This document shows positions 4,062 to 59,890 of a DNA stretch of 64,000 nt, piece after piece. Numbering within the stretch: position 1 is the first letter of the stretch; every line of letters starts with the position of its first letter. The notes beneath the pieces are model-generated. The model did no database searches. It had not been told where the DNA came from and saw only the letters and a program-made list of their open reading frames with translations. The DNA is from an uncultured Pseudomonadales bacterium (GTDB lineage: Bacteria > Patescibacteriota > Microgenomatia > UBA1400 > Chazhemtobacteraceae): positions 11,569-75,568 of the forward strand of contig CAZUBK010000005.1 of the NCBI GenBank assembly GCA_964618725.1, written 5' to 3'. A program made the translations under genes and the position numbers.

Positions 4062-6644
4062 TCAAGGAATCAAAGTAGGATTAGGCGTTGGAGTTGGAGT
4101 TGACACCACTGCTTCCTGATTAACACCAAAAGTGACAGTCGCTTCATTCTCAATCCCCGCTGAGTTTCTTGCCTTCACCTTTAATTCATAAACTCCATTT
4201 TCAAGAACAAAAGATCTCTCATAAGGCGGCGTGTCAAAGCGATGCTCTCTACTCCCATTCAGATATACGTCTACCCACTCAATTTTCTCGTTTGAGGCAA
4301 CTGACACTTTGATTTTAACTTCATTACCTTCGATCCTACTGCTACTAGTCGGTTCTTCTATTTTAATTCCAATGCTCTTGGTATCACCGCAATACTCCAT
4401 TGGTGGATGAAATTTGTCATCAGTCTGCTCCGACAACCATCGATCTATTGTTTTTTGCCACAAGTTATCCGCTGTCAATGGATCTTCCTCTCTCACATAG
4501 ATGTATTCGGCTCTATCAAAATTGTTTTCCGCAATCTGGACCTTATTTGCCAACTTAGTCGGATCTCCAGGACAAACCTCTATTTTGCGATGAATTGGAT
4601 CATCAGCCGTCGGCAACGTCCCTTTTACCACCCATTCCTTATAACTTGGAAAATCATCATGAGCCTGGTACCCCGAAACCAGATCCAAATCTACCTGTTC
4701 AACTCCACCAGGTTGCTCAAACTCCTGATCTCCAAAAGCCGTTATCACTTCAAGAATCTGACGTCGCCAGATAGGGGAAGCCCCCGACACTCCTGAAGCC
4801 ACCTGTTTCATCTGACTATTATCATTGTTTCCCACCCAGACCCCTACCACCATTTTTCTCGTCCAACCCACAGCCCAATTATCTCGTCTATCATTTGTCG
4901 TTCCCGTCTTCACCGCTACGTTACGCCCCGATAGATTAAGTAAACTATTTGGCCCGAATGTCAAAAGCCTCGCCTTATTGTCTGACAAAATCGAATTAAT
5001 CAAGAACGCCGATTGTTCACTCAAGATTCTCTTTTTACCCGATTGCTTATGTTCAAAAAGAGTCTTCCCGTTTTTATCCTCAACCCGCAAGATACTTACC
5101 GGTTCTACTTTAAACCCCGAATTTGCAAAACTCGCATAAGCCGACGTCATATCCAAAAGTCTCACCTCACCCCCTCCCAGAGTTAGCGACAAACCAATGC
5201 GTCTTAAGTTTTCGTTTGTCGGCTCTAGAGTGGTTAAACCCATCTCGTATGCCATCTTCAAAGTATCCCTGACCCCAACTAATGCCAGCAATTTTACCGC
5301 CGGAATGTTGAGTGAGCTACCCAAAGCTTCTCTTAAGTGTACCAATCCATGTTCTTTACCGTCATAGTTCTCTGGCACATAAAACGGCTTCTCTGGATCC
5401 CCAGTAGGAAACTCTGTTACCACATCGGCTATCACTCGTCCCGGCCACATACCCTTCTCAAATGCCGTCACATATGTTACCGGTTTTATTGACGACCCAG
5501 GTTGTCTGGAACTCAAAGCTACATTGACTTGACCATCTCCTTCTTTATCAAAAAAGTCTTTTGATCCAACCATACTCAAAATCTCTCCCGTTTCGACATC
5601 AATTATCACACTCGACCCATTTGTAATATGATGACTCTCAACCACTTTTTCTATTTCCTCAGCCACAATCTGTTGAGCTTTGTCTTGTAACTCCCAATCA
5701 ATAGAGGTTGTCACTTTAAGGCCCCCTCCTGCCACCAACTCCTCCCCATACATCTCGTTCAGCTTATCTCGCACATACATTACAAAATGAGGCGCTTTAA
5801 TCGTTGACCCAGCAGGTCTAAAGCTTGCTCCTGCCAATTCAGACAATACTTGTTTTTCCTGCACCGGAGTAATATATCCATCTTCCCGCATCCTCCTTGC
5901 CACATCTGTCGCTCTATTAACATAGGCCAACGGATCCTTGCCATACGGGCTATATCTACTTGGAGCTTGAGGCATACCGGCTAGAATGATTGACTCCGTT
6001 AAATTCAGTTCCTCTGGTTTCTTACTAAAGTATTGCTCGGCTGCCGAAGCAATTCCCCAGGCGGTACCACCATATGGCGCTTCATTCAAATACATTTGTA
6101 GGATCTCATCCTTGGTAAACTTTCTCTCAATCTGAACCGCCAGAACTAGTTCTTTTACCTTTCTCGAAAGACGTCTCTCGCTCGTCAACAAGACATTTTT
6201 CACCAGCTGCTGAGTTAAAGTTGACCCTCCAATTATTCTTTGCCTAAACACAACATTCTTCAATATCCTAAGAAAGGCTAATGGATCAAAACCTTGGTGT
6301 TTGTAGAAATCCTTATCCTCAATCGAAATAGTCGCTTGCTTAAGTGGAGCCGGAATCTGATCTAGTGGAGTAAATGTCCGATTCTCATCCTCATAGACAT
6401 CGAAAAGCACTGTCTCTCCAGTCCGATCAAGAATCTGAGTCGAAAATCCCTCCTTTCGTTGAATCGAATTAGGATCAGGCAAATCCCTGGAATACCAAAC
6501 GAAGGCAACTGTGGACAGAACGGTTCCCCCAAGCAATCCGAAAAAAACCAATTTCGCCAAGCTTGCCATGCTCAATCTTCCAAACACTCCCATTATTCCT
6601 GATCCTCTCCTTCTCTGCCGACCCAAACGTCCAAAACGACTCAT
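4062..6644 (-). CDS. class A penicillin-binding protein (transglycosylase/transpeptidase, PBP1A-like) with C-terminal extension
   Basis: The 860-aa ORF has an N-terminal TM anchor, GT51 motifs (QILDRTGE..., TLTQQLVKN), a transpeptidase S-x-x-K region and a beta-rich C-terminal tail. Confidence 0.8.
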   Translation of the reverse strand: MSRFGRLGRQRRRGSGIMGVFGRLSMASLAKLVFFGLLGGTVLSTVAFVWYSRDLPDPNSIQRKEGFSTQILDRTGETVLFDVYEDENRTFTPLDQIPAPLKQATISIEDKDFYKHQGFDPLAFLRILKNVVFRQRIIGGSTLTQQLVKNVLLTSERRLSRKVKELVLAVQIERKFTKDEILQMYLNEAPYGGTAWGIASAAEQYFSKKPEELNLTESIILAGMPQAPSRYSPYGKDPLAYVNRATDVARRMREDGYITPVQEKQVLSELAGASFRPAGSTIKAPHFVMYVRDKLNEMYGEELVAGGGLKVTTSIDWELQDKAQQIVAEEIEKVVESHHITNGSSVIIDVETGEILSMVGSKDFFDKEGDGQVNVALSSRQPGSSIKPVTYVTAFEKGMWPGRVIADVVTEFPTGDPEKPFYVPENYDGKEHGLVHLREALGSSLNIPAVKLLALVGVRDTLKMAYEMGLTTLEPTNENLRRIGLSLTLGGGEVRLLDMTSAYASFANSGFKVEPVSILRVEDKNGKTLFEHKQSGKKRILSEQSAFLINSILSDNKARLLTFGPNSLLNLSGRNVAVKTGTTNDRRDNWAVGWTRKMVVGVWVGNNDNSQMKQVASGVSGASPIWRRQILEVITAFGDQEFEQPGGVEQVDLDLVSGYQAHDDFPSYKEWVVKGTLPTADDPIHRKIEVCPGDPTKLANKVQIAENNFDRAEYIYVREEDPLTADNLWQKTIDRWLSEQTDDKFHPPMEYCGDTKSIGIKIEEPTSSSRIEGNEVKIKVSVASNEKIEWVDVYLNGSREHRFDTPPYERSFVLENGVYELKVKARNSAGIENEATVTFGVNQEAVVSTPTPTPNPTLIP

Positions 6645-48880: not shown

Positions 48881-50038
48881 TCAATCCTCACTCTCTTCTA
48901 GTACTGCCTTTACTTCAATCTCCTTCCCCTCTCTCCAAAGTTTCATTTCCAATATCTCCCCCACTTTTTTCTGATTAATAATCGATACCAAACCATCCTC
49001 AACATCCTTCAACTCCTTTCCATCCGCCTCAAGAAGGATGTCTCCTAATCTGATTTTTGCTTTTGCCGCTGGTGAAGTCTTCAATACCGCTTCTACGTAT
49101 GCTCCTTGTGGCACATCATTAAGTATTGCCGTTTCCTGATTAATCATTCTGTATCTTACTCCTAGGAATGGCCTGCTAAATCTCCCGGTTGTCTCAAAGT
49201 TGTCAAGGGACGTTTTAAGCTCATTTATTGGTATTGCAAATCCTATGTTTTGCCCATTCCCTGATACCGCCACATTGATTCCGATCACCTGCCCAGCTGA
49301 GTTAAGAAGCGGCCCCCCAGAATTGCCCAAATTAATTGCTGCGTCAGTTTGTATCACATTGTCTAACCTCTCAGAATTAAATACATCTCCCGCTGTGATT
49401 CCTCTTCCCAAACCCGAAATGACTCCAGTTGTTACCGTCTGGCGAAACTCACCCAACGCCGTCCCAATCGCAATCACAAACTGCCCCGCCTTTAACTGAT
49501 TCGAGTCACCCAACTCAAGTGGCGACAGATCCTCTCCACCCTCTATCTGAAGTATTGCCAAATCATTAAGTGGATCTCGATAGATCTTTTCCACTACATA
49601 CTCTTTATCATCTTCTCCTATCACCTTGTAAGTTACCTCCCTATCAACCACTACATGTTTGTTTGTGATCACCAATCCTCCCTCAATAACAAAACCGGTC
49701 GCGATGTCATGTTGAACCAAACTCATCTCGCCCTCTGGCACATTCATCATCCCAAAGGGGCCAAAAGTGATCTCGGAAGTCCCTTCTTCAGAGACTGAGG
49801 CAATCGTCACCACCGACGGACTAGCTCTCTCAACTACTTCTACTACTACTCCTTCTTCCTTAAGAATCTTTTGTGTCACCAAATTATCCTTCCCATCAGG
49901 CAATCTGAATCCCCCCACTCCCAAACCAAGAACGTAATCTAGCGGTCTAATGACAAACAACCGGTCAGCGATTGCCCCACCTATTGCACTAAAAAGCACT
50001 AAAATAGATACCCCCAACCCAAGAAGAAAGTTCTTCAT
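48881..50038 (-). CDS. HtrA/DegP-family serine protease with PDZ domain
   Basis: It has the catalytic GNSGGPL, a signal anchor and a C-terminal PDZ domain. Confidence 0.85.
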   Translation of the reverse strand: MKNFLLGLGVSILVLFSAIGGAIADRLFVIRPLDYVLGLGVGGFRLPDGKDNLVTQKILKEEGVVVEVVERASPSVVTIASVSEEGTSEITFGPFGMMNVPEGEMSLVQHDIATGFVIEGGLVITNKHVVVDREVTYKVIGEDDKEYVVEKIYRDPLNDLAILQIEGGEDLSPLELGDSNQLKAGQFVIAIGTALGEFRQTVTTGVISGLGRGITAGDVFNSERLDNVIQTDAAINLGNSGGPLLNSAGQVIGINVAVSGNGQNIGFAIPINELKTSLDNFETTGRFSRPFLGVRYRMINQETAILNDVPQGAYVEAVLKTSPAAKAKIRLGDILLEADGKELKDVEDGLVSIINQKKVGEILEMKLWREGKEIEVKAVLEESED

Positions 50039-50055
50039 GAACTAAATATAACTAC

Positions 50056-50424
50056 TTACTCAGCGATCTTCAACCCAAGCTCAGCCGCAGATTCTTTATT
50101 CTCAGTACTCCAGATTACCTGACCTCGCTCACTAACAATTACTTCGCCCTCATCAATAATATCCTCAACGCTACTAGGCCTTTCCTCCCCATAAATGTAC
50201 AGGTTTCCATCTCTAGTACGAAGATATTTACCTTCCATCTCGTCACCATTTAGGTGTTCCAAATGACCCATCCCCTGCCGCAATCGTCTGATCGCCACTC
50301 TCAAATCCTCAGCTGTCACCTTTTCCCCCTCATTCCCTAATCCAAGAATCAAGACTTCTCCACCCTCTCCAACACGTTCCCAACGAAATAACGGTGTCTC
50401 TAAACCCATTCTTTGTTCTGTCAT
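50056..50424 (-). CDS. hypothetical protein
   Basis: A 122-aa acidic ORF with no motif. Confidence 0.3.
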   Translation of the reverse strand: MTEQRMGLETPLFRWERVGEGGEVLILGLGNEGEKVTAEDLRVAIRRLRQGMGHLEHLNGDEMEGKYLRTRDGNLYIYGEERPSSVEDIIDEGEVIVSERGQVIWSTENKESAAELGLKIAE

Positions 50425-50460
50425 ATTTTGATGAAATCACTTTGAACCATCAAAGTCAAT

Positions 50461-51735
50461 CTACTGCAATTCCTCTATGGCCCTAATCAGTTGCGTATCC
50501 ACGCTCGCGTCAGCCGACGAGGTCGACTGCTTTACTTCCACATCCGGCATCAGTCCTTCCTTGTGAATATTCTTCCCACTCGGTAACAACCATTTCGCTA
50601 TCGTCACATGTAGTCCTGCCCCTCCAGGTAAGTCTTGTGCCTCTTGTACTGTACCTTTACCAAAAGTCTTCTCACCGATTAATTTCACTTTAAGTTGATC
50701 CCGTAGCGCTCCCGCCAATATCTCTGAGGCCGAGGCCGAGCCACGATTAACCAACACCACAAACTTCTTTCCAATCAGTTTCCCTTTATGGTTAACAGTA
50801 AAAGTCTCTGTTTCATATTTTCCTTGTTGTTTCACCACTACCCCACTGGGAATAAACTCGGACGCCAAATCGATTGCTCGTTGCAAGAAACCACCCGGAT
50901 TATTTCTCAAATCTAGGACGATACCCGACAGACCTTTCCGAGCCAATATCTTGTCTATCGACTGCTGCCACTCCTCCGCCGTCTTCTCTCCAAATCGAAT
51001 CACCCTAAGATGAGCAAACTTAGCCGTTTCACTCTCTTTACCTCCTTCGTCAACAAACTTGATCTCAACCGAGGGCACCACAATAATGTCTCTGACTAAG
51101 CTAACTTCAAATGCTCCCCCGTTCCCCTCTCGAAAAATTGTTAAAACTACCTCGCTCCCCTTCGGACCTCGTATTATATTCACCGCCTCCTGAAGATTCA
51201 TTCCCTCCGTATCTATATCAACATTCTTCTTTACATCCTTAATGTGTAATATCAAATCTCCTGCTTTCAATCCCGCTTTATCCGCCGGCAACCCCGGCAA
51301 AGGCGACATCACCCCCAACGTCTTGTCAATGTAACCAAGTTGGATTCCCACCCCAGCAAATTCGCCTGCCAAGTCCTCTCTACTCTGCTTGTTTTCCGTC
51401 GGTGGTAAGAATGACGTATAAGGATCATCCAAGGCCGCTGTCATACCTCCAATCGCTCCATATACCATCTTCTGAGAGTCAAGCGCCTCAGCATCAAGAT
51501 AATCCGCCTCCAATCGATCCCAAACTTTCCAAAACAAATCAAAATCAACCCGTCTGCCGTTCGGAGTCTCTTTGTTTACAATGGTCTGCAAAGTAGACAA
51601 CTTTGTCCTCGCCTTTACCTCTCCGGCTCTCACTCCCCCCAAAAAACCGCCAATACCAAAGACAGTCGCAACCAACATAACCAGAAGTACCTGTCTAACT
51701 TTTTTCAAGCTTATTTTCTTAGTTTCCACAGTCAT
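50461..51735 (-). CDS. carboxyl-terminal processing protease (S41 family)
   Basis: It has a PDZ domain and the S41 catalytic region (NPGGFLQ, GASASASEILAG). Confidence 0.8.
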   Translation of the reverse strand: MTVETKKISLKKVRQVLLVMLVATVFGIGGFLGGVRAGEVKARTKLSTLQTIVNKETPNGRRVDFDLFWKVWDRLEADYLDAEALDSQKMVYGAIGGMTAALDDPYTSFLPPTENKQSREDLAGEFAGVGIQLGYIDKTLGVMSPLPGLPADKAGLKAGDLILHIKDVKKNVDIDTEGMNLQEAVNIIRGPKGSEVVLTIFREGNGGAFEVSLVRDIIVVPSVEIKFVDEGGKESETAKFAHLRVIRFGEKTAEEWQQSIDKILARKGLSGIVLDLRNNPGGFLQRAIDLASEFIPSGVVVKQQGKYETETFTVNHKGKLIGKKFVVLVNRGSASASEILAGALRDQLKVKLIGEKTFGKGTVQEAQDLPGGAGLHVTIAKWLLPSGKNIHKEGLMPDVEVKQSTSSADASVDTQLIRAIEELQ

Positions 51736-51770: not shown

Positions 51771-53558
51771 TTACGGAGCCACTTCCTGCCAGATGATCTT
51801 GGGTATCTTCATCGCCGCTGGCGCGTTAACCACAAAGTCGGGCCTAAATATAAAGTATTCACTCGACTCAGTATTATTGACATCTCCCCTATCCCTCTCC
51901 AAAGATATCGCCTCCCAACCAACAAAAGTTCCCTCTCCTCTGAATCTTTGATCCGTCGCTGTATCCCCAGTAGAAGCCACCGTGATCACGTTCGCTACGT
52001 ATACTCCCTCCGCCCGCGTCACATTGGCTTGAAAAGTTACTGTCCCCGACGCGATTATCGCTAAGTACCCCCCCATTGCCACATCGGTATTCCCCGTCAC
52101 CGTCACATCTCCATTGTGTAAAACCACAATCTTATCGGTATTTCCCACCGCCCAACTCCCGTCAATTATAAGATCTCCACTACTTTTGTACAAAAAGTCA
52201 CTACTCCCTGTCGGCTTACCCATCCCATTCCAATCTACTCGATTAAGCGACGCAGTTCTCGCATAATAGTAGCCATAGTCAAATGCCCTCCCCGTATATC
52301 CGCTCGACACCTTCCAACCGTCTTTACTCACAACAGCATTCGCTGCAGTCCCTAAATCGATTGTCCCGGCTGAATAAACCAAGCCTGACATACCGCTGTT
52401 GTCTCCCCTTTGAACCACCAATGGCGTCTTGTCTCCGCCCGCGTAGCTATTACAAGTAGCTCGATTCCCTGAAAAACTACAAGCCGCCGGAATCTCACTC
52501 ACCACTCTGCTTTTTCCATAGATATCTCCACCTTCCGCCTGGAACCAACCACTACCCGACCGCGATAAGCCGATATTTCTTATCTCTTCCTCCCCCTGAT
52601 TGTTTAAAGTAATCGTGTCAATCGATCCGCTACACAGAAGTTTCTGTTGATATGTTATTGCCCCCGTATCGTAACTCAATCGATAGGTCTCAGGTACCGG
52701 CAAGCCCCCGATATCAAACCGTCCATTTGCCGTTGTTACTTCTGTATACGTCCCTATATGGTTTTGCAACGCCGTCAATGTCACCACTACTCCTTCTATC
52801 TTCGGCCGATTGTCTCGATCAGCACATCTAGCACCTCCAGAAGCGTCAAAGAACTGCCCCCTGATATTTCCCTTGCAATTTTGGGTTCCTTGACAAACAT
52901 TACTTCGCGTAAAAGTAGCCGCCTTACAAGAAGTCCATTTATCGTCTACGTCCGAACATCTACCATCACATCCATCCGATCCACCGCACTGCGGCTTGTT
53001 CCTACCAGGACAATTCGGCACACAGCCAGAACTGCTCCCGGTACTACTTCCCCCACCACAGGCAGCCGCGTCATAACATCCTCCCGGACTCAAACATACC
53101 GGATTATTGCCCAATCCCGCACAATCAGCATTCCCGTTAGCCGGATCACACGCCGATCCACACCCCGGACCGCCAGACGAAGATGAAGTCGATCCTCCAG
53201 AGGAAGTTGAGCCACCAGATGAAGTTGATCCACCAGAAGACGTAGAACCGCCCGATGAAGTTGATCCACCCGACGATGACCCGCCGCAAGAAAAAGGAAG
53301 TTCGCCCAAACCAGTGCAAGAACTAGTCATACAATACTGAATATTCGGCTCTCTAGTACCACACGGTTCACAATTAGATCTTTCCTGCCAACAACAGGGC
53401 GGATCACCTCCATCATTACATGGCATAGGATTACTACCACACACAGATCTACTGCACACCCAATAACTTTCTGCTCGTACTTTCGATACCGACCACTGCC
53501 ACACCAATAATACAAGAACAAATACAGGTAGAGAAACCAGCAGACGTCTTTTATTCAT
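51771..53558 (-). CDS. large secreted Cys-rich protein with (SGGSTS)n linker and beta-rich C-terminal domain
   Basis: It has a signal peptide, an N-terminal module with more than 30 Cys, five tandem SGGSTS repeats and a carboxypeptidase-regulatory-like stretch (RFDIGGLPVPETYRLSY). Confidence 0.5.
   Translation of the reverse strand: MNKRRLLVSLPVFVLVLLVWQWSVSKVRAESYWVCSRSVCGSNPMPCNDGGDPPCCWQERSNCEPCGTREPNIQYCMTSSCTGLGELPFSCGGSSSGGSTSSGGSTSSGGSTSSGGSTSSGGSTSSSSGGPGCGSACDPANGNADCAGLGNNPVCLSPGGCYDAAACGGGSSTGSSSGCVPNCPGRNKPQCGGSDGCDGRCSDVDDKWTSCKAATFTRSNVCQGTQNCKGNIRGQFFDASGGARCADRDNRPKIEGVVVTLTALQNHIGTYTEVTTANGRFDIGGLPVPETYRLSYDTGAITYQQKLLCSGSIDTITLNNQGEEEIRNIGLSRSGSGWFQAEGGDIYGKSRVVSEIPAACSFSGNRATCNSYAGGDKTPLVVQRGDNSGMSGLVYSAGTIDLGTAANAVVSKDGWKVSSGYTGRAFDYGYYYARTASLNRVDWNGMGKPTGSSDFLYKSSGDLIIDGSWAVGNTDKIVVLHNGDVTVTGNTDVAMGGYLAIIASGTVTFQANVTRAEGVYVANVITVASTGDTATDQRFRGEGTFVGWEAISLERDRGDVNNTESSEYFIFRPDFVVNAPAAMKIPKIIWQEVAP
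53183..53272. repeat. five imperfect 18-bp tandem repeats encoding (SGGSTS)n
   Basis: Read directly: gatgaagtYgatccacca-like units. Confidence 0.6.
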
Positions 53559-54231: not shown

Positions 54232-54657
54232 TTAAGACCCATCTGGATCCTCCTTTAGAAGGTTATCCAGAAAGGTATCCCTTTCTTCATCGTTGGCAAA
54301 CGGAGGTCTTGCCGGCGGCGGAAGGGTTTCCCGAGGATCTTGATCGACACTCGGCCACGGCAAGGTGCAACGCACCAAAAACGCCCTCGCCTCTTCCTCT
54401 TCCATTCCCTCAGCAGTTAGCTGAGAGAGCGTCAATTCGTACCGCTGAGAGGGATTCTCCCCCTCTTGAATCCATCGACACAACTCATCCGATGCGACGG
54501 AACTCGCCTCAAATGCACTCGATTGAGGCATCTGGGAAGCGGCGACATTCTCACTCTTCGGCGAGAAAATCGTCACGACTACCAACACGACAAAAACGAT
54601 CAGTGCCTTCATGAGACACCTCCTTTGTAAGGAACGAATACCTGCACTATACCCCAT
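54232..54657 (-). CDS. small secreted Pro/Glu-rich hypothetical protein, GC-rich gene
   Basis: The signal peptide MKALIVFVVLVV suggests a probable start near 54612. The gene is clearly GC-richer than its neighbours. Confidence 0.4.
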   Translation of the reverse strand: MGYSAGIRSLQRRCLMKALIVFVVLVVVTIFSPKSENVAASQMPQSSAFEASSVASDELCRWIQEGENPSQRYELTLSQLTAEGMEEEEARAFLVRCTLPWPSVDQDPRETLPPPARPPFANDEERDTFLDNLLKEDPDGS

Positions 54658-54707
54658 ATCCCCCCGTTTGTCAAGCTATCGGCCACACTCTCCTCCTTTT
54701 CAAGGTA

Positions 54708-54730
54708 CAAAAAACCGCCTCAGGGGCGGT
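54708..54730 (-). terminator. intrinsic terminator (accgcc/ggcggt stem plus T6) after the AsnB-like gene
   Basis: Read directly. Confidence 0.55.
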
Positions 54731-54823
54731 TAAGGAAGCTTCCCTTTGGGGGCCGCTAGGTCCAAGTCGGACAACAGCTGAGGCTTCTTATATCTCATAC
54801 TCAAACTAGCATAACACCTCCTG

Positions 54824-56461
54824 TCAACTTGAAAAGTTCAACACAACATCATTCTTCTGCAAAAACCACTCTAATTTGATGAGTGTCTCTAGTGCAATTG
54901 CCACATTAGGTTCCTTGAATATCTGACCATTAGGATCATCAAGCATATCTTGTATTTGATTAGGATCAATCAATCCCGTTGAAACCAAGACAGAGTTCTT
55001 CAAGACTTCATCGATTAATGGTCGTTGATTTATCGCAAAATTTACAAATGTGTGCTCAGGACTTCCCTTTTTAGGAATAAACATTTCCTCTACAAAAATG
55101 TCCTTCATTTCTTTCATCAGCTCCAATTTCAAATCCCATTTCTTTTTTCCTAGCACTTCAGGCATATTCTTACCCAGAGCAATTAACCTAGTATCCAAAA
55201 AAGGATTCATAAAGCGCAGTCCATAAGAGTTATACTGTTCTTGAGAACTTGCCTTAGCTATTACCCCAGACTCGGAAATTATTGTTGGATAGGAACTCCT
55301 TTTATTATATCTGTCCTCATCCAAAAATATCTCGATCCCTTTTGAAGTAAATAGCGCTTGTGTACCAAACTTCTTGAGAGTGTTGACTTCCATAAAATAG
55401 TTGTACTGTTTGTTGAATCTTAGAAACAAATCCATACCTTTCAACATATATGCCTCATCACCACCCTCGCCACCAAAATTAATACGAACCCCATTTCTCT
55501 TCAACAATCCAAGGTGCACCTGTTGTTCATGCATGGCAATCTGATACGGATCATCTACCGACCACTTCTCTGAATAGTTAGAATCACGTAGTTGAGGCTT
55601 CTTGGCATCAACTGATTTCAATTTCAAACCATGTCTATCCGTAAACTTCTTTACAACCTCAATATTTGTTTCATCTACCATCAAATCCGAGTAGCGTGAA
55701 TAACAAGTAAATGCATTAGGACCAGCAACCTGTGCTAAACAATAAGCAATTAAGGTGCAGTCAAAACCAGAAGAAACATCACACCCAATTTCAACTCCCT
55801 TAGGAATTTTTGACCAACGTTGCCTGACAATTTCAGTCACAGCTTTAATCCAATCGATAGAAAAATCTTTTAAGGACGAATATTTCAAGTCCTCAAGAGA
55901 ATTAAGGTAGCCTTCGATATCAAGCAGTGTCTTAATCCTATATGAAGATGGATTATCGAAATTAAATACAACTACGGAACCTGCGGGGACTACCTTAATC
56001 TGTTGTATTAAGGTTTTCTCAGTCATGTGCCATGTCCAAAGCAAACCTGTCAGTATCCCATCTAAATCACCTATCAACTTTTGGCTTCCTTTAACTTCAT
56101 TTTTTACTTTCGAAAAATTAGTTGAAAAAATTATCGAACCCTGAAGAATTGAAAAATAGCATGCAAAACTAAAAAATTGGTCCACGCAGACAGAAAGAGT
56201 CCTATTTTGTTTATCAAACATAAACAAAATAAATTCGCTATTGCTATTCACAATTCGTCGAAACCCATTTGTCTGTACTTCTAATAACAAATCTTTTTCA
56301 TGTAACAAATTTTCATAACAAACAAAATATCCAGTCAACAAATACCGATCATTTTCTTGTCGAATCCTGATTGGTACTCTTATATCAGGTAATTGGACAG
56401 TAGAAAACAAGCCCTCAACGGCGAAAGGCAGGTCTAGTTTTATACAAAAATCGTTATTCAT
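54824..56461 (-). CDS. asparagine synthetase (AsnB) family protein lacking the N-terminal glutaminase Cys; lasso-cyclase/beta-lactam-synthetase-like amide ligase
   Basis: It has a PP-loop-like motif (DVSSGFDCTLIAYCLA, compare SGGLDS) and an AsnB synthetase motif (NFGGEGGDEAYMLKG). The N-terminus is MNNDFC, not MCG. The gene is AT-rich and overlaps the upstream 86-aa ORF by 8 nt. Confidence 0.65.
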   Translation of the reverse strand: MNNDFCIKLDLPFAVEGLFSTVQLPDIRVPIRIRQENDRYLLTGYFVCYENLLHEKDLLLEVQTNGFRRIVNSNSEFILFMFDKQNRTLSVCVDQFFSFACYFSILQGSIIFSTNFSKVKNEVKGSQKLIGDLDGILTGLLWTWHMTEKTLIQQIKVVPAGSVVVFNFDNPSSYRIKTLLDIEGYLNSLEDLKYSSLKDFSIDWIKAVTEIVRQRWSKIPKGVEIGCDVSSGFDCTLIAYCLAQVAGPNAFTCYSRYSDLMVDETNIEVVKKFTDRHGLKLKSVDAKKPQLRDSNYSEKWSVDDPYQIAMHEQQVHLGLLKRNGVRINFGGEGGDEAYMLKGMDLFLRFNKQYNYFMEVNTLKKFGTQALFTSKGIEIFLDEDRYNKRSSYPTIISESGVIAKASSQEQYNSYGLRFMNPFLDTRLIALGKNMPEVLGKKKWDLKLELMKEMKDIFVEEMFIPKKGSPEHTFVNFAINQRPLIDEVLKNSVLVSTGLIDPNQIQDMLDDPNGQIFKEPNVAIALETLIKLEWFLQKNDVVLNFSS

Positions 56462-56714
56462 TGGTATGTAAAATATTTCTGTCCACTAATTTAGTAAGGA
56501 TTTCTTCCAATCCATCAACGTCATTCCTAAAAAAAACTTGCAACTGTTTTTCATCCACCGGTTGATTTTCAAATATGTATTTTAAAAGTTGATACTCTAA
56601 TGGTCTAATCGCAACAACATCGTCAGACTTGAAATCATAAGCAATCGTATAATAATCATTTTTTTTATCGGTATCTAAAAAAATTATGGCGTCCTTATTT
56701 ACTAAATAGGTCAT
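56454..56714 (-). CDS. small (86 aa) winged-helix-like protein, possibly a PqqD-like RiPP recognition element
   Basis: Only size and position argue for this, together with a C-terminal helix pattern (LEEILTKLVDRNIL). There is no strong motif. Confidence 0.3.
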   Translation of the reverse strand: MTYLVNKDAIIFLDTDKKNDYYTIAYDFKSDDVVAIRPLEYQLLKYIFENQPVDEKQLQVFFRNDVDGLEEILTKLVDRNILHTNE

Positions 56715-56738
56715 TTTTACTCAAAATTAGTCTCTTGA

Positions 56739-56758
56739 GGGGCGGCTTACGCCGCCCC
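56739..56758 (-). promoter_or_regulatory. strong GC hairpin (ggggcggc ttac gccgcccc) between the small peptide gene and the downstream genes
   Basis: Read directly. No U-run follows on the minus strand, so it is more likely an attenuator or stability element. Confidence 0.4.
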
Positions 56759-56767
56759 GATTTACAA

Positions 56768-56914
56768 TTACGATTGCCTTGAATTGGGGTTTTGATCACT
56801 ACCACCATTCTTTGCTCTCGATATCTCACTCATTTTACCTAAAACTTCAACTTTTGGCTCGCTCTTCTCCATTTCGATCTTCTGCTCAACTATTTTTTCG
56901 ATTTGACTTGCCAC
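56768..56914 (-). CDS. 48-codon peptide gene (candidate RiPP precursor)
   Basis: AAAGGAGG sits 8 nt before GTG 56914. The peptide is VASQIEKIVEQKIEMEKSEPKVEVLGKMSEISRAKNGGSDQNPNSRQS, with TAA at 56768-56770. It is not in the ORF track (too short). Confidence 0.3.
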   Translation of the reverse strand: MASQIEKIVEQKIEMEKSEPKVEVLGKMSEISRAKNGGSDQNPNSRQS

Positions 56915-56942
56915 AATACTCACCTCCTTTCACACAATCGTA

Positions 56943-56965
56943 CAAAACCGCCAATAAAGGCGGTC
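56943..56965 (-). terminator. terminator-like hairpin (accgcc aataaa ggcggt plus U4) after rpsR
   Basis: Read directly. Confidence 0.45.
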
Positions 56966-57064
56966 GTAAGAACCAAAAAAATCCTTCACCAGCTAGAAAT
57001 ACAGAACAATCCGATTTCATTGAGTAAAATATAACACCTCCCGTCAACTCTAAACTCTCAACTT

Positions 57065-57292
57065 CTAGATAAACCTCATCATCGCCAAGTGTCTGGCCCG
57101 CTTTATTGAGATCGCCACCCTTCTCTGATGCTTCTCACACACTCCGGTCACAAAACGAGAGATAATTCTCCCCTTACCCGAAAGATACTTACTCAAAGTC
57201 TCAGTCTCTTTGTAATCCGGCTCCTTTTTGTTTACACAAAAATAACAAGGCTCTTTAGACCGTCTAATTTTTTTCTTTACTGGTTGTGCCAT
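57065..57292 (-). CDS. rpsR: 30S ribosomal protein S18
   Basis: CYFC...KEPDYK...LSKYLS.KGRI...TGVCEKHQRRVAISIKRARHLA. Confidence 0.9.
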   Translation of the reverse strand: MAQPVKKKIRRSKEPCYFCVNKKEPDYKETETLSKYLSGKGRIISRFVTGVCEKHQRRVAISIKRARHLAMMRFI

Positions 57293-57326
57293 CGTTACTG
57301 TTCTTGATTTCTAATAATTAAGCTCG

Positions 57327-57827
57327 TTAAAAAGGAATATCATCAGCCACTTCTTCGGCTAGATCTCTTTCTTCTTTCTTTTCCGGTTTCTCCTCAATAT
57401 CCGAGAGCTCCGCCTTAACTTCGTCTTCTATGACAGAAGCCACTGGAGTAGAAGTTATCTCCGTCCCAAATTCCTCACCTTGACCCGGTTTACCCGGACC
57501 AAAGGCAATCATCTCTTCAATCACCACTTCAGTCGTCCGTCGCTCTACACTATCCTGTCCCGTCCAGGTTCTCGTCGACATTCGACCCTCTACATAAATC
57601 TTTCTCCCTTTGTAAAGTAGTTGTGAGCAAATCTCCGCCAACTTGTTCCAAGCCACCAAATTATGAAACTCCACATCCTCCTGTCGCTGGCCCGACTGAT
57701 CAGCCCACTCCCGGTTTGTTGCCAATCCGAAAGAACAAACTGGTGTCCCCTGTGGCGTGTATCTAAGTTCAGGGTCTCGTGTCAAATTACCAATCAACAA
57801 CACCTTGTTCAAGCTTCTGGCTGCCAT
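57327..57827 (-). CDS. ssb: single-stranded DNA-binding protein
   Basis: It has an OB fold (NKVLLIGNLTRDPELRYTPQG) and an acidic tail ending DDIPF. Confidence 0.9.
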   Translation of the reverse strand: MAARSLNKVLLIGNLTRDPELRYTPQGTPVCSFGLATNREWADQSGQRQEDVEFHNLVAWNKLAEICSQLLYKGRKIYVEGRMSTRTWTGQDSVERRTTEVVIEEMIAFGPGKPGQGEEFGTEITSTPVASVIEDEVKAELSDIEEKPEKKEERDLAEEVADDIPF

Positions 57828-57829
57828 AT

Positions 57830-58114
57830 TTATTTGGTACTCTTGATAACTAATAAATGTCGTAAAACACTTTCCGTCTGTTTTAACCTTATTCCCAAAT
57901 CAGACACTTCTTTAGGCTTCAATTGCAAATCAAAGAGAATATAAGCCCCTCTGGACATCTTCTTGATTGGATATGTCAATTCCCGTACTCCCCAAAAATC
58001 AAAAGTTTTTATCTCCCCACCTGTTTTCTGAAGTAATCCTTCCAAAAGGACCTTAGCCCCTTCCTCAGTAGTATCTTCGGGCAAGACTAAAGTTAGTTCG
58101 TAAATCTTATCCAT
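57830..58114 (-). CDS. rpsF: 30S ribosomal protein S6
   Basis: YELTLVL...GEIKTFDFWGVRELTYPIKK; rpsF-ssb-rpsR order. Confidence 0.85.
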   Translation of the reverse strand: MDKIYELTLVLPEDTTEEGAKVLLEGLLQKTGGEIKTFDFWGVRELTYPIKKMSRGAYILFDLQLKPKEVSDLGIRLKQTESVLRHLLVIKSTK

Positions 58115-58198
58115 AAATTTTACTTAATTCTGGCTAATTATACCAAGACAATAATCCGAAAGCAATTACAGCAACTATTTTGTACTACACTTAAAATA

Positions 58199-59890
58199 AT
58201 GCCGAAAAAGTATACTTCAAGACTCCCCTTCTGGTTGGGTATTTTTACCATCTTACTTCTCACTTTCTATTTTAGCATTGGCATTACCCGCTACTTTTTC
58301 TTCGGTTCACACGACGGCGACTACAACCTTATTCGTGCCTTCACTGCCCTGCTAGCCTTCAAAGAAGGCCAGTTTCCTCTTTTCTGGACTGGCACCCTCA
58401 ACCAACTTTGTGGCGCTCCCCTCCCTACCACCCATTATCCTCTCCTCAGTTATCTCGCAATTCTTGTAGCTCAAGTCATTCCTCTCCCTCTTCCTCGAAT
58501 TATTACCTACATCTTCGCCACCTCACTCCCTCTTGGCGGACTTGGTATGTACTTGCTTTTTTCTCGTCACAGTAAATCTGTCTTCACTTCATTTGTCGGT
58601 GCCACCCTTTACTCTCTCTCCCCCTACTTTTTTGTCAACCTTTACGTTCGCGGTACTACCGAAGTTTTCGGCTACGCCCTCGCTCCCTGGATTTTTCTCC
58701 TTATTAATCTCGTCTTCCAATCTACTCTCTTCTTTCCCCTGCTTGTCCTTATCTGGTTGCTCTTTATTCTCTCCCACAATCTCGTCTTTCTTTTTTTTCT
58801 TCCTTTCATCCTCCTCTATCTCTTCTGTCTCAGCCGAAAACATAAAACCTCGTCCCTTGGTTTATTGATTCTTCTCGTTTTCTCTCTGACCGCCTCCTTT
58901 TTCTGGCTCCCCGCTCTAGTCTTTCAACCCCTACTTCAACTTAGTATCACCCCCGCCATAGATTACCAACAACACTTTCCCTCCCTTAGACAACTCCTTT
59001 ATTCCCCTTGGGGCTTCTTCTATCAGACTGCCTCCCCCTCTAACAAGTACCCTTCCGGTATCAACTTCTCGCTGGGAATCGCTCAGTGGCTTCTTCTCGC
59101 CATCACCGTTATTTCCCTTAAACTGAAACCATACCGCCGTCTCAAATTATCGTTACTCGCTCTAACTCTCCTCACCATCTTTTTTATTTCGTATCCCTCC
59201 CGTTTTTTGTGGAACAGTTTTACTCCCCTTCAAATTATTCAGTTCCCCTGGCGACTTCTTGGGCTTGCCATTTTTTTCATTAGCGTCCTAACCGTCATTA
59301 CTCTCTCCTCCCTCCCCAAGTCATTAAGAATCATCGTCGGCATCCTTCTCCTTTCTTTCGCCATTATCGGCAATCGTAATCACCACCTGCCGACCCCACT
59401 CATGGATGAAAGCTTTTATCACAATCTCAACTACCACCCCGTTCGCTATACCACTACCACCATCGCTGACGAAGTCATCCACAAGAACTCACTCAGAGCC
59501 TGTAAGGCTTCTGATCCCTTCGTCACTGGCTCGTCGATCCAAGGCTCCTCCGCCGAGATCAAAGAAAGCTCCGGCCAAATTTCTTATTCTTCCTCCAAAC
59601 AAACAGATCACGACCTTGCCCTCCGTTTAATGTACTTCCCCGGCATCTATCGCTTTCAGGTTAACAACCAGCCCATTTCGGAATACAGCGAAAGTCAAGG
59701 TCTAGTTCTCCTAAAAGACGTCTCTTCCCAAAAAGGTCTCAATCAAATCAGTTGGACCATCCACCCCACTCCCACCCATCGCCTCGCCTATCTCCTCACC
59801 CTCGTCGGTTTCGCCCTCACTCTTATCTATCCCATTATCCGACTTCTCAACCAAGCAAAACTCTCAAGAAAAACTAAGTCCCAATCATAA
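58199..59890 (+). CDS. large polytopic membrane protein (possible GT-C-type glycosyltransferase), function uncertain
   Basis: The 563-aa ORF has more than 12 hydrophobic helices and a large C-terminal soluble domain. Confidence 0.4.
   Translation: MPKKYTSRLPFWLGIFTILLLTFYFSIGITRYFFFGSHDGDYNLIRAFTALLAFKEGQFPLFWTGTLNQLCGAPLPTTHYPLLSYLAILVAQVIPLPLPRIITYIFATSLPLGGLGMYLLFSRHSKSVFTSFVGATLYSLSPYFFVNLYVRGTTEVFGYALAPWIFLLINLVFQSTLFFPLLVLIWLLFILSHNLVFLFFLPFILLYLFCLSRKHKTSSLGLLILLVFSLTASFFWLPALVFQPLLQLSITPAIDYQQHFPSLRQLLYSPWGFFYQTASPSNKYPSGINFSLGIAQWLLLAITVISLKLKPYRRLKLSLLALTLLTIFFISYPSRFLWNSFTPLQIIQFPWRLLGLAIFFISVLTVITLSSLPKSLRIIVGILLLSFAIIGNRNHHLPTPLMDESFYHNLNYHPVRYTTTTIADEVIHKNSLRACKASDPFVTGSSIQGSSAEIKESSGQISYSSSKQTDHDLALRLMYFPGIYRFQVNNQPISEYSESQGLVLLKDVSSQKGLNQISWTIHPTPTHRLAYLLTLVGFALTLIYPIIRLLNQAKLSRKTKSQS

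Follow-up and report, generated by a model that had tools for sequence, protein, structure and literature searches.

A conserved three-gene cassette of Patescibacteria encoding a candidate RiPP precursor, a predicted recognition element, and an asparagine synthetase-like enzyme

What is encoded by the 48-codon open reading frame (ORF) that lies on the minus strand at positions 56768..56914 of a 64,000-nucleotide stretch of contig CAZUBK010000005.1 (GenBank assembly GCA_964618725.1, from an uncultured bacterium of the Patescibacteriota), and what would the two genes that follow it do to its product? The whole of that stretch is referred to hereafter as the window. An earlier note on this DNA had drawn attention to the ORF as a possible precursor of a peptide that is made by the ribosome and then modified post-translationally (RiPP) and, from the position of a single Asp residue, had raised the possibility of a lasso peptide. 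As described below, the ORF is a real, conserved gene. Its product is quite probably a RiPP precursor, the leader of which would be recognized by a RiPP recognition element (RRE), and a conserved Asp/Glu of which would be adenylated by an enzyme resembling asparagine synthetase (an AS-like enzyme) to give an intrapeptide amide. With regard to the nature of that amide, the mechanism favored here, and only tentatively, is an isopeptide bond between the side chains of Lys35 and Asp40 formed on the leader-bearing peptide.

The gene, which specifies 48 amino acids plus a stop codon (MASQIEKIVEQKIEMEKSEPKVEVLGKMSEISRAKNGGSDQNPNSRQS), begins with a GTG at 56914-56912 and ends with a TAA at 56770-56768. 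Direct reading and translation of the minus strand confirmed the start proposed in the earlier note, namely a GTG located 8 nt (TGAGTATT) after the Shine-Dalgarno sequence AAAGGAGG at 56930-56923. An alternative GTG at 56923 would give rise to a precursor of 51 amino acids, but it overlaps the Shine-Dalgarno sequence. In itself a 48-codon ORF is unremarkable here, since there are 121 ORFs of at least 30 amino acids in 14 kb. A gene for the identical 48-residue protein (P0075) has already been called in assemblies of the same organism from NCBI and Logan, and the peptide is thus "unlisted", as it had been described, only in a relative sense.

For comparison, 54 loci encoding relatives of the 545-residue protein specified by the third gene of the cassette were fetched. 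In approximately 40 of about 50 related loci, a homologous small ORF of 37-62 codons is positioned directly upstream of an RRE-like gene. A profile search of the database added 38 peptides, for a total of 58 distinct precursor sequences; the counts of distinct peptides given here are not phylogenetically independent. The check proposed in the earlier note, a search for homologous small ORFs next to AsnB-like genes in related genomes, yielded ~55 distinct peptides encoded beside relatives of both downstream genes in ~50 loci of the Patescibacteria. Over the last 30 codons of five relatives, the proportion of synonymous differences (pS) is 0.5-1.0, which is near saturation, and that of nonsynonymous differences (pN) is 0.11-0.29, a substitution pattern that points to purifying selection on the precursor gene. 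A Shine-Dalgarno sequence of the AAAGGAGGTG type, 6-8 nt before the start, is also found in L001, L018, L019, L020, and L010, and in the same five loci GC stems of differing sequence follow the stop codon at the equivalent place. The peptide itself matches no Pfam, NCBIfam, or Rfam family. From the public gene call, the roughly 40 homologous ORFs, the pN and pS values, and the retained Shine-Dalgarno sequence and hairpin, it follows that the 48-residue ORF is a real, conserved gene.

The architecture of the peptide became apparent from an alignment of 33 precursors. The N-terminal 15-25 residues are unconserved, and in the window peptide the leader is conserved only at residues 19-31 (EPKVEVLGKMSEI; 56822..56860, minus strand). 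The consensus of this leader box is EPxxE(V/I)LG(K/N)(M/F)xE(V/I/L), and its equivalent in the Microgenomates-type subfamily is GLKELCS.... Four to five variable residues separate the box from the core, which in the window comprises residues 34-48 (AKNGGSDQNPNSRQS; 56771..56815, minus strand). A pattern of K-x4-[D/E] followed by a tail of 7-10 residues is present in 55 of the 58 distinct precursors; the three exceptions are a truncated entry, a peptide with the acid at K+6, and an aberrant copy. In the window the two key residues are Lys35 (codon 56812-56810) and Asp40 (codon 56797-56795). The core Lys is present in every full-length precursor and is never replaced by Arg. The residues between it and the acid are Gly-rich in most lineages (KNGGSD, KRGGRE, KHGGPD), and some lineages display Gly-free cores (KRVSYE, KMVSYE, KRMNID). 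Most cores are cationic, all are short, and their tails bear residues that are bulky or basic (R, K, W, H, Y). Conservation confined to a leader box and a core is, as judged from these alignments, the pattern typical of RiPP precursors, and it lends support both to the leader/core architecture read into the single peptide by the earlier note and to its suggestion of an acidic residue at a fixed distance within the core.

The second gene (56454..56714, minus strand) encodes a protein of 86 residues that belongs to a family conserved in 45 of 51 loci. A protein search revealed only four relatives, and the AlphaFold2 model, with a mean predicted local distance difference test (pLDDT) score of 78.6, accordingly rests on a shallow alignment of 4 sequences. 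The model consists of N-terminal β-strands followed by three α-helices, that is, a PqqD-like fold. Its neighbors in Foldseek are almost exclusively RRE domains, including those of SuiB, TbiB1 (5v1v), the lasso B1 protein 6jx3, TigE, TruD, ThcOx, MccB, and McbB, with TM scores of 0.6-0.7 over the whole domain (~0.68 for the lasso B1 proteins 5v1v and 6jx3) and weak E-values of 0.03-1. The profile of the protein matches winged helix-turn-helix domains in the PDB. No match was obtained to PF05402 or to any other Pfam or NCBIfam model, and thus the discrete, PqqD-like RRE (B1) of lasso systems has its counterpart here in the predicted fold topology rather than in a profile match. On the basis of the model, the 86-residue protein is a predicted RRE, and it is presumed to recognize the leader box at residues 19-31.

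The third gene (54824..56461, minus strand), the start of which overlaps the stop of the RRE gene by 8 nt, encodes a protein of 545 residues. Its match to PF00733 is weak (E = 1.3e-9), and it scores 46 bits against TIGR01536, for which the cut-off is 267, and 15.5 bits against the lasso cyclase model NF033561, for which the cut-off is 300; a second model, NF033535, was unreported at E <= 0.1. A comparison of folds was needed because a search of PDB sequences with the enzyme profile produced nothing at E <= 0.01 and only weak PP-loop matches at E <= 10. The AlphaFold2 model (pLDDT 90.6) gave full-length Foldseek matches to the two-domain AsnB fold, with E-values of 4e-17 to 1e-12 for TsnB9, β-lactam synthetase, carbapenam synthetase (CarA), and AsnB, the best of these being the hydroxyamidotransferase TsnB9. 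Invariant in 39 homologues are the PP-loop residues S230-S231-G232-x-D234, the residues G331, G334, D335, and E336 of a GxxGDE motif, and K445. The two-domain fold, the PP-loop, and the acidic motif together place the protein in the AS-like/PP-loop adenylating superfamily. The N-terminus reads MNNDF..., with a family consensus of MNxxF, such that the Cys at residue 2 that is characteristic of glutamine-hydrolyzing AsnB is absent from the family. The same lack of the Cys is seen in enzymes that form intramolecular amides, namely lasso cyclases and the β-lactam and carbapenam synthetases. Judged by sequence and predicted fold, the 545-residue protein is a putative macrolactam synthetase that would adenylate a carboxylate without hydrolyzing glutamine. 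The assertion that the genes downstream of the peptide specify modification machinery has thus gained in substance, given a protein with an RRE fold and an AS-like enzyme devoid of the glutaminase Cys.

When clustered at 50% identity, the AS-like family comprises 69 representatives among 1.84 billion proteins, and every named source is a member of the Patescibacteria (Collierbacteria, Microgenomates, Woesebacteria, Blackburnbacteria). Its nearest outgroups are uncharacterized AS-like proteins of ~540 residues, one that best matches the lasso cyclase model, again below the cut-off, and genuine AsnB. The family is a separate clade of AS-like proteins. All-against-all clustering of the ORFs across the loci demonstrated that only the AS-like family (51 loci) and the RRE family are conserved, and the precursor is co-conserved with both over enzyme identities of 27-75% and in the sister clades described below. 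At many of the related loci, the gene that comes after the cassette is oriented convergently. The leader protease of lasso systems, the transglutaminase-like Cys protease B2 (PF13471), which there is clustered with the RRE or fused to it, was not found in ~50 locus neighborhoods, including the products of ten same-strand neighbor genes, which display unrelated domains or none, and those of the downstream ORFs of the window. No transporter or immunity gene is conserved with the cassette across the loci, and an ATP-grasp gene, which would encode the ligase that defines the graspetides, was not encountered among the conserved or examined neighbors.

The same two core residues recur outside of the main family. 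In more distant enzyme clades, revealed by profile search, the small ORF beside each enzyme gene contains a Lys together with an Asp at K+5 or K+6. The clades without an RRE gene have the cores ...KPVGRDDQGYRRD, ...KPVGWNDQGWRDEK, ...KPVGFQDQGFRHD, and ...KPKGWQDQGYRAEEGD, in which the residue preceding the Lys is R, F, M, or L. In an RRE-less sister clade (L055:124-279, L058:2859-3011, L059:207-368, and L060:232-375), with enzymes of ~541-551 residues, a Lys-rich small ORF located immediately upstream ends in K-P-x-G-(aromatic or Arg)-x-D-Q-G-aromatic-R; from their sequences these ORFs look like a related, equally uncharacterized precursor family. Other clades show the gene order precursor, enzyme, RRE (L062:2806-4879 and L063:45-2110), with the cores ...SGKPYSSGDANNINYPYAD and ...DTKFPGGDNARTQDATD (motifs ...GKPYSSGD... 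and ...TKFPGGD...), and there the called RRE gene overlaps the end of the enzyme gene by 8-11 nt. In L061 the small ORF, with the core ...AKPKGTSDQGYCSD, is situated downstream of the enzyme gene, and an RRE gene was not identified at that locus. When at least 12 divergent precursor lineages and several enzyme clades are compared, no core residues are universal other than the Lys and the Asp/Glu at K+5 or K+6.

Two genomes contain two different cassettes in tandem (L020:3515-7922 and L001:4521-7165). In each, the first cassette carries a type-1 peptide (...GKNGG[AG]D...) and the second a type-2 peptide (...AKNGAGDKSGIYGH) with its own RRE. The second cassette of L020 also has its own enzyme, of 543 residues; in L001 a second enzyme ORF was not found within the 700 nt available after the second RRE gene.

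How might the three gene products act together? In the mechanism that we favor, the 86-residue RRE would bind the leader box and hand the leader-bearing peptide to the 545-residue AS-like enzyme. The enzyme would then adenylate the side-chain carboxylate of Asp40, and the ε-amine of Lys35 would most likely capture the activated group. The expected product is a small macrolactam closed by a K(i)-D(i+5) side-chain-to-side-chain isopeptide bond, with a mass loss of 18 Da, and its closure would require no dedicated leader protease. The GC hairpin that follows the precursor gene would probably serve to raise the ratio of precursor to enzyme transcript.

Four observations led us to favor Lys35 as the nucleophile. 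First, the Lys is invariant, and never Arg, in at least 12 lineages and several clades. Second, the residue that would occupy position 1 of a lasso ring, the one preceding the Lys, is the most variable of the region: in 55 peptides it is A in 32, G in 9, V in 5, Q in 3, T in 2, and L, F, S, or R in one each, and no later core residue varies as much. Third, no protease is linked to the cassette in ~50 loci. Fourth, graspetides likewise show a variable core in which the two crosslink partners alone are invariant. In addition, the translational coupling of the RRE gene to the enzyme gene suggests that the substrate of the enzyme is the leader-bearing peptide; with the leader still attached, the α-amine of the core is not free and only a side-chain amine is available. 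Should this mechanism be correct, the cassette would define a new RiPP class, in which an RRE-guided AS-like enzyme ties the side chain of a Lys to that of an Asp/Glu while the peptide still bears its leader, a proposal that we put forward more tentatively still. Such a class would have arisen from, or in parallel to, the lasso cyclases and would be confined to the ultra-small Patescibacteria, together with related sister clades that have a leader but no RRE.

Several points weigh against the Lys35-Asp40 crosslink. We know of no AS-like enzyme that joins a Lys to an Asp/Glu side chain, a chemistry that to our knowledge has been encountered thus far only in ATP-grasp ligases, and the characterized RiPP AS-like enzymes without glutaminase function are lasso cyclases. 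In 42 of 55 peptides a small residue (A, G, or S) precedes the Lys; the acid is then at position 7 or 8, and these are canonical sizes of a lasso ring. In the window subfamily, a Pro at -14, a hydrophobic residue at -12, a Gly at -8, and a Ser at -2 echo the spacing of a lasso leader, for which a Gly-x5-Thr spacing is among the RODEO heuristics. A leader protease could, furthermore, be encoded elsewhere in the genome. Lasso leaders are marked by Pro(-14), Leu(-12), and Thr(-2) (PMC12070363), and of ~3,800 AS-like proteins associated with RiPPs, ~3,500 are lasso-related (PMC13060819), which is a strong prior.

The main alternative is that the cassette produces a true lasso or a branched-cyclic peptide. 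An unlinked protease would cut before Ala34 (or Lys35), and the new α-amine would be joined to Asp40 to form a ring of 7 residues, through which the tail of 8 residues may be threaded. Three of the four components of a lasso system have counterparts in the cassette, namely a precursor, a discrete RRE, and an AS-like enzyme without Cys2, and TbiB1 and 6jx3, both of them lasso B1 proteins, are among the closest full-length structural neighbors of the RRE. Counted from the residue before the Lys, the acid falls at position 7 in the main family and at position 8 in the sister clades and in L050, and the bulky or basic tail residues would be in keeping with such a peptide. Lariocidin and gelatinamin are examples of cationic lasso peptides in which Lys2 is conserved, and there is also a pathway that functions without B proteins, that of triculamin (PMC12070363). 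Triculamin, however, dispenses with the protease only since its core is N-terminal, whereas in the present case it is the leader that is N-terminal; given that no B2 gene was found in the loci or neighbors examined, an unlinked protease would be required. Two of the motifs of lasso leaders are YxxP and Thr(-2) (PMC12710340). In the 55 peptides YxxP is absent, and the would-be position -2 is occupied by M (26), S (6), V (6), A (6), I (5), F (2), L (2), K, or N, but never by Thr. Among the residues found at the would-be position 1 are V, Q, T, L, F, and R, with M, F, L, and R in a sister clade. The poor scores of the enzyme against the curated cyclase models add to these difficulties, and the invariance of the Lys, never an Arg, goes unexplained by a lasso ring.

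The lasso assignment of the earlier note thus stands in part. The Asp that it had placed at position 7 from Ala34 is indeed there, as Asp40, and a protein of predicted RRE fold and a Cys-less AS-like enzyme accompany it; lacking are a B2 protease in the ~50 loci, the Thr(-2) and YxxP motifs, and matches to the curated cyclase and PqqD models. Note that no cleavage motif defines the start of the core: the acid is at position 7 only if the core begins with Ala34, and in relatives it is at 7 or 8. As far as sequence conservation allows one to judge, a side-chain crosslink between Lys and Asp/Glu accounts for the pattern no less well than an N-terminal lasso ring does. We regard a lasso or branched-cyclic product as a serious but unlikely outcome.

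Decidedly improbable is a second alternative, in which an activated carboxylate, either of Asp40 or of the C-terminus, is transferred to an external amine to yield an amide, a nitrile, or a conjugate, in the manner of TsrC, ScdTA, or PesC. It is true that the best structural match of the enzyme is a hydroxyamidotransferase, TsnB9, and that AS-like enzymes in RiPP clusters carry out C-terminal amidation and nitrile formation, with ~300 RiPP-associated AS-like proteins still uncharacterized (PMC13060819). In two degraded-looking loci (L014:3185-3331 and L052:431-604), the peptides end four residues past the Lys (...EKMVSF and ...EKLVGH), which puts the C-terminal carboxylate at approximately the site that the side chain of Asp/Glu occupies in the remaining peptides. 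The nitrogen donor of PesC, however, is L-glutamine, and also ammonia (PMC13060819), and the present family is without the N-terminal Cys needed for the use of glutamine. At the C-terminus neither the residue nor the length is constant (the tails measure 7-10 residues), whereas the internal acid and the Lys are fixed. Amidation of Asp/Glu to Asn/Gln would be pointless, as the latter can be encoded directly, and here too the invariant Lys is left unexplained. Less probable still is that the peptide is left unmodified, as a small regulatory or structural protein whose presence beside the two genes is incidental, or that the cassette is inactive, for although the peptide has no family annotation in Pfam or NCBIfam, no transporter or immunity gene is conserved, and some loci appear degraded (a frameshifted RRE gene in L017 and L028, a split enzyme gene in L052), such a reading is at odds with the tight co-conservation with an RRE-fold protein and an adenylating enzyme down to 27% identity and into the sister clades, with the conservation of leader box and core, with the tandem cognate cassettes of two genomes, each with its own peptide type, and with purifying selection.

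Returning to the favored side-chain crosslink, it is instructive to compare the cassette with known systems. It resembles a lasso system minus its protease. With the canonical lasso systems (A, B1, B2, and C) it has in common an N-terminal leader and a short C-terminal core, a precursor gene that comes first in a compact operon, a discrete RRE of (here predicted) PqqD fold, an ATP-dependent AS-like enzyme without the glutaminase Cys, an Asp/Glu 7-8 residues along from a mostly small residue, and a short bulky or basic tail. It differs from them in that B2 was found at no locus, Thr(-2) and YxxP are missing, enzyme and RRE fall below the thresholds of the curated lasso and PqqD HMMs (hidden Markov models), the would-be position 1 is variable and the next residue an invariant Lys, the partner to which the RRE gene is coupled is the cyclase gene and not one for a protease, and its occurrence is limited, as far as found, to the Patescibacteria.

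In the triculamin-type systems, an AS-like cyclase works without B1 or B2 on a precursor with a follower, and the cyclase is truncated (PMC12070363). The core there is N-terminal with the follower C-terminal, the cyclase lacks the N-terminal domain, and there is no RRE; in the present cassette, by contrast, the leader is N-terminal, the enzyme is full-length, with two domains, and an RRE is encoded. Cationic cores, a Lys at position 2, and a Gly beside the ring-forming Asp are shared with triculamin and the class V lasso peptides lariocidin and gelatinamin (PMC12070363, PMC11451635, PMC13178200). The core motif of triculamin and lariocidin, on the other hand, is PGDG with an 8-residue ring, compared to K-x-G-G-x-D/E here, and in class V the linkage of Lys2 with the C-terminus is due to a clostripain-like transpeptidase, which the cassette lacks. 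A triculamin- or lariocidin-like identity was rejected since neither the PGDG motif nor the 8-residue ring is matched, and the likeness is one of analogy only.

If the favored mechanism is correct, the product would share with the graspetides of the microviridin type a side-chain Lys-Asp/Glu macrolactam made on a leader-bearing precursor; in both, the crosslink partners are the only invariant residues of the core. The graspetides rely on an ATP-grasp ligase and an acyl-phosphate, however, whereas here an adenylate-forming AS-like PP-loop enzyme would be at work, and the likeness would be convergent. The β-lactam and carbapenam synthetases belong to the same superfamily and have the adenylation chemistry predicted here. 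Of the AS-like enzymes that form an amide within one molecule while their N-terminal domain is inactive, they are the best studied; they also figure in the top structural matches, but they act on small molecules. TsrC and ScdTA (C-terminal amidation) and PesC (nitrile formation) are likewise AS-like proteins with the chemistry predicted here. They differ in acting on a C-terminal carboxylate, with the nitrogen in the case of PesC coming from glutamine or ammonia; the present system has no Cys nucleophile, an RRE as a partner, and a conserved internal acid.

Searches of the literature yielded no description of this family, nor of any system in Patescibacteria that pairs an RRE with an AS-like enzyme and has no B2. 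The usual tools for mining lasso peptides and other RiPPs require a B2 protease or matches to curated HMMs and thus would miss the cassette, which has been found so far only in tiny uncultured bacteria of the Candidate Phyla Radiation (CPR), a group whose natural-product chemistry is almost unexplored. A Lys-Asp/Glu ring, if true, would widen the reaction scope of AS-like enzymes, would provide a convergent, adenylation-based route to graspetide-like macrolactams, and would offer a minimal, protease-free, three-gene cyclization system for peptide engineering. Were the product a true lasso instead, its biosynthesis would demonstrate that an unlinked protease can suffice, and the lasso peptides would extend to the Patescibacteria. 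In either event, short cationic products may bear on the interactions of episymbionts with their hosts or competitors.

The signals that surround the cassette are as follows. An 8-bp GC hairpin with a GTAA loop (GGGGCGGC-GTAA-GCCGCCCC; 56739..56758, minus strand) lies between the precursor and RRE genes, and, in agreement with the earlier note, which had placed it within 10 nt of the stop codon, it starts 9 nt past it. The minimum free energy of the region (76 nt) is -25.9 kcal/mol, with a z-score of -4.3 relative to shuffled sequences. A simple scan did not score the hairpin as a canonical terminator because a U-run does not directly follow, and the stem is probably a transcript-stabilizing or attenuating element. 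The cassette ends with an intrinsic-terminator-like hairpin, AACCGCC-CCTGA-GGCGGTT followed by TTTTTG (54713..54731, minus strand), identified by a terminator scan. A third hairpin, ACCGCC-TTTATT-GGCGGT followed by TTTTG (56947..56964, minus strand), was read directly from the sequence and marks the border between the cassette and the upstream rpsF-ssb-rpsR operon, the genes of which were named by Pfam. It is only ~17 nt upstream of the Shine-Dalgarno sequence of the cassette. The interval from rpsR to the Shine-Dalgarno sequence (56931-57064, minus strand) yielded no convincing promoter of the σ70 type for the cassette, and transcription may be due to read-through or to an unrecognized CPR promoter. 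A link to the ribosome through rpsF-ssb-rpsR was dismissed as coincidental, for the upstream neighbors differ in other loci and the terminator-like hairpin intervenes. A known RNA element at the site was ruled out by an Rfam scan of 54500-58300, which gave nothing credible. A second cassette was not found in the window.

A number of related loci depart from the usual arrangement. In L016 a tRNA-Ile(TAT) occupies the expected precursor site (4515-4587), and a recognizable precursor is missing; in L017 (4724-5005) and L028 (3743-4011) the RRE genes are frameshifted and split into two frames. These three loci suggest decay, or a precursor encoded elsewhere. In a Blackburnbacteria locus (L015:2953-4614, equivalent to L045:1953-3614), a precursor-like sequence, ...EPTVEMLGKIRELNVGKRMNIDRTRYVPLD, is in frame with a 553-codon ORF, with no stop codon between them, and this ORF joins Nudix-like, SagB/nitroreductase-like, and M16-peptidase-like segments. 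It may represent a natural fusion, a missing stop codon, or an assembly artefact. Just downstream of the cassette in L037 (6112-8237) are a YcaO cyclodehydratase (PF02624, E = 1e-55) and a SagB-type nitroreductase-like ORF, which suggests a second RiPP cluster, of the azoline type, next to the cassette.

Various neighboring genes were considered as sources of a leader protease. An M16 peptidase was rejected as a dedicated one, in that it adjoins the cassette in only 3-4 loci. Likewise rejected as B2 were the downstream ORFs of 141 and 208 residues, which have no Pfam or NCBIfam match, possess hydrophobic, membrane-anchor-like N-termini, and are unconserved elsewhere. At 48881-51735 of the window, 3-6 kb downstream on the same (minus) strand, are genes for an S41 C-terminal processing peptidase (CtpA-like, 424 residues) and an HtrA-like trypsin/PDZ protease (385 residues), each of which has a hydrophobic segment at its N-terminus. 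As neither is retained beside the cassette at other loci, they were rejected as members of it and are probably unrelated housekeeping proteins; if the leader is removed outside of the cytoplasm, they would be the nearest candidates. Between them and the cassette (51771-53558, minus strand) is the gene for a 595-residue protein, predicted to be secreted, in which the N-terminal part is rich in Cys and a (GGSTSS)n repeat is present; the protein shows only a weak CarboxypepD_reg-like match and has relatives near the cassette in three other loci only.

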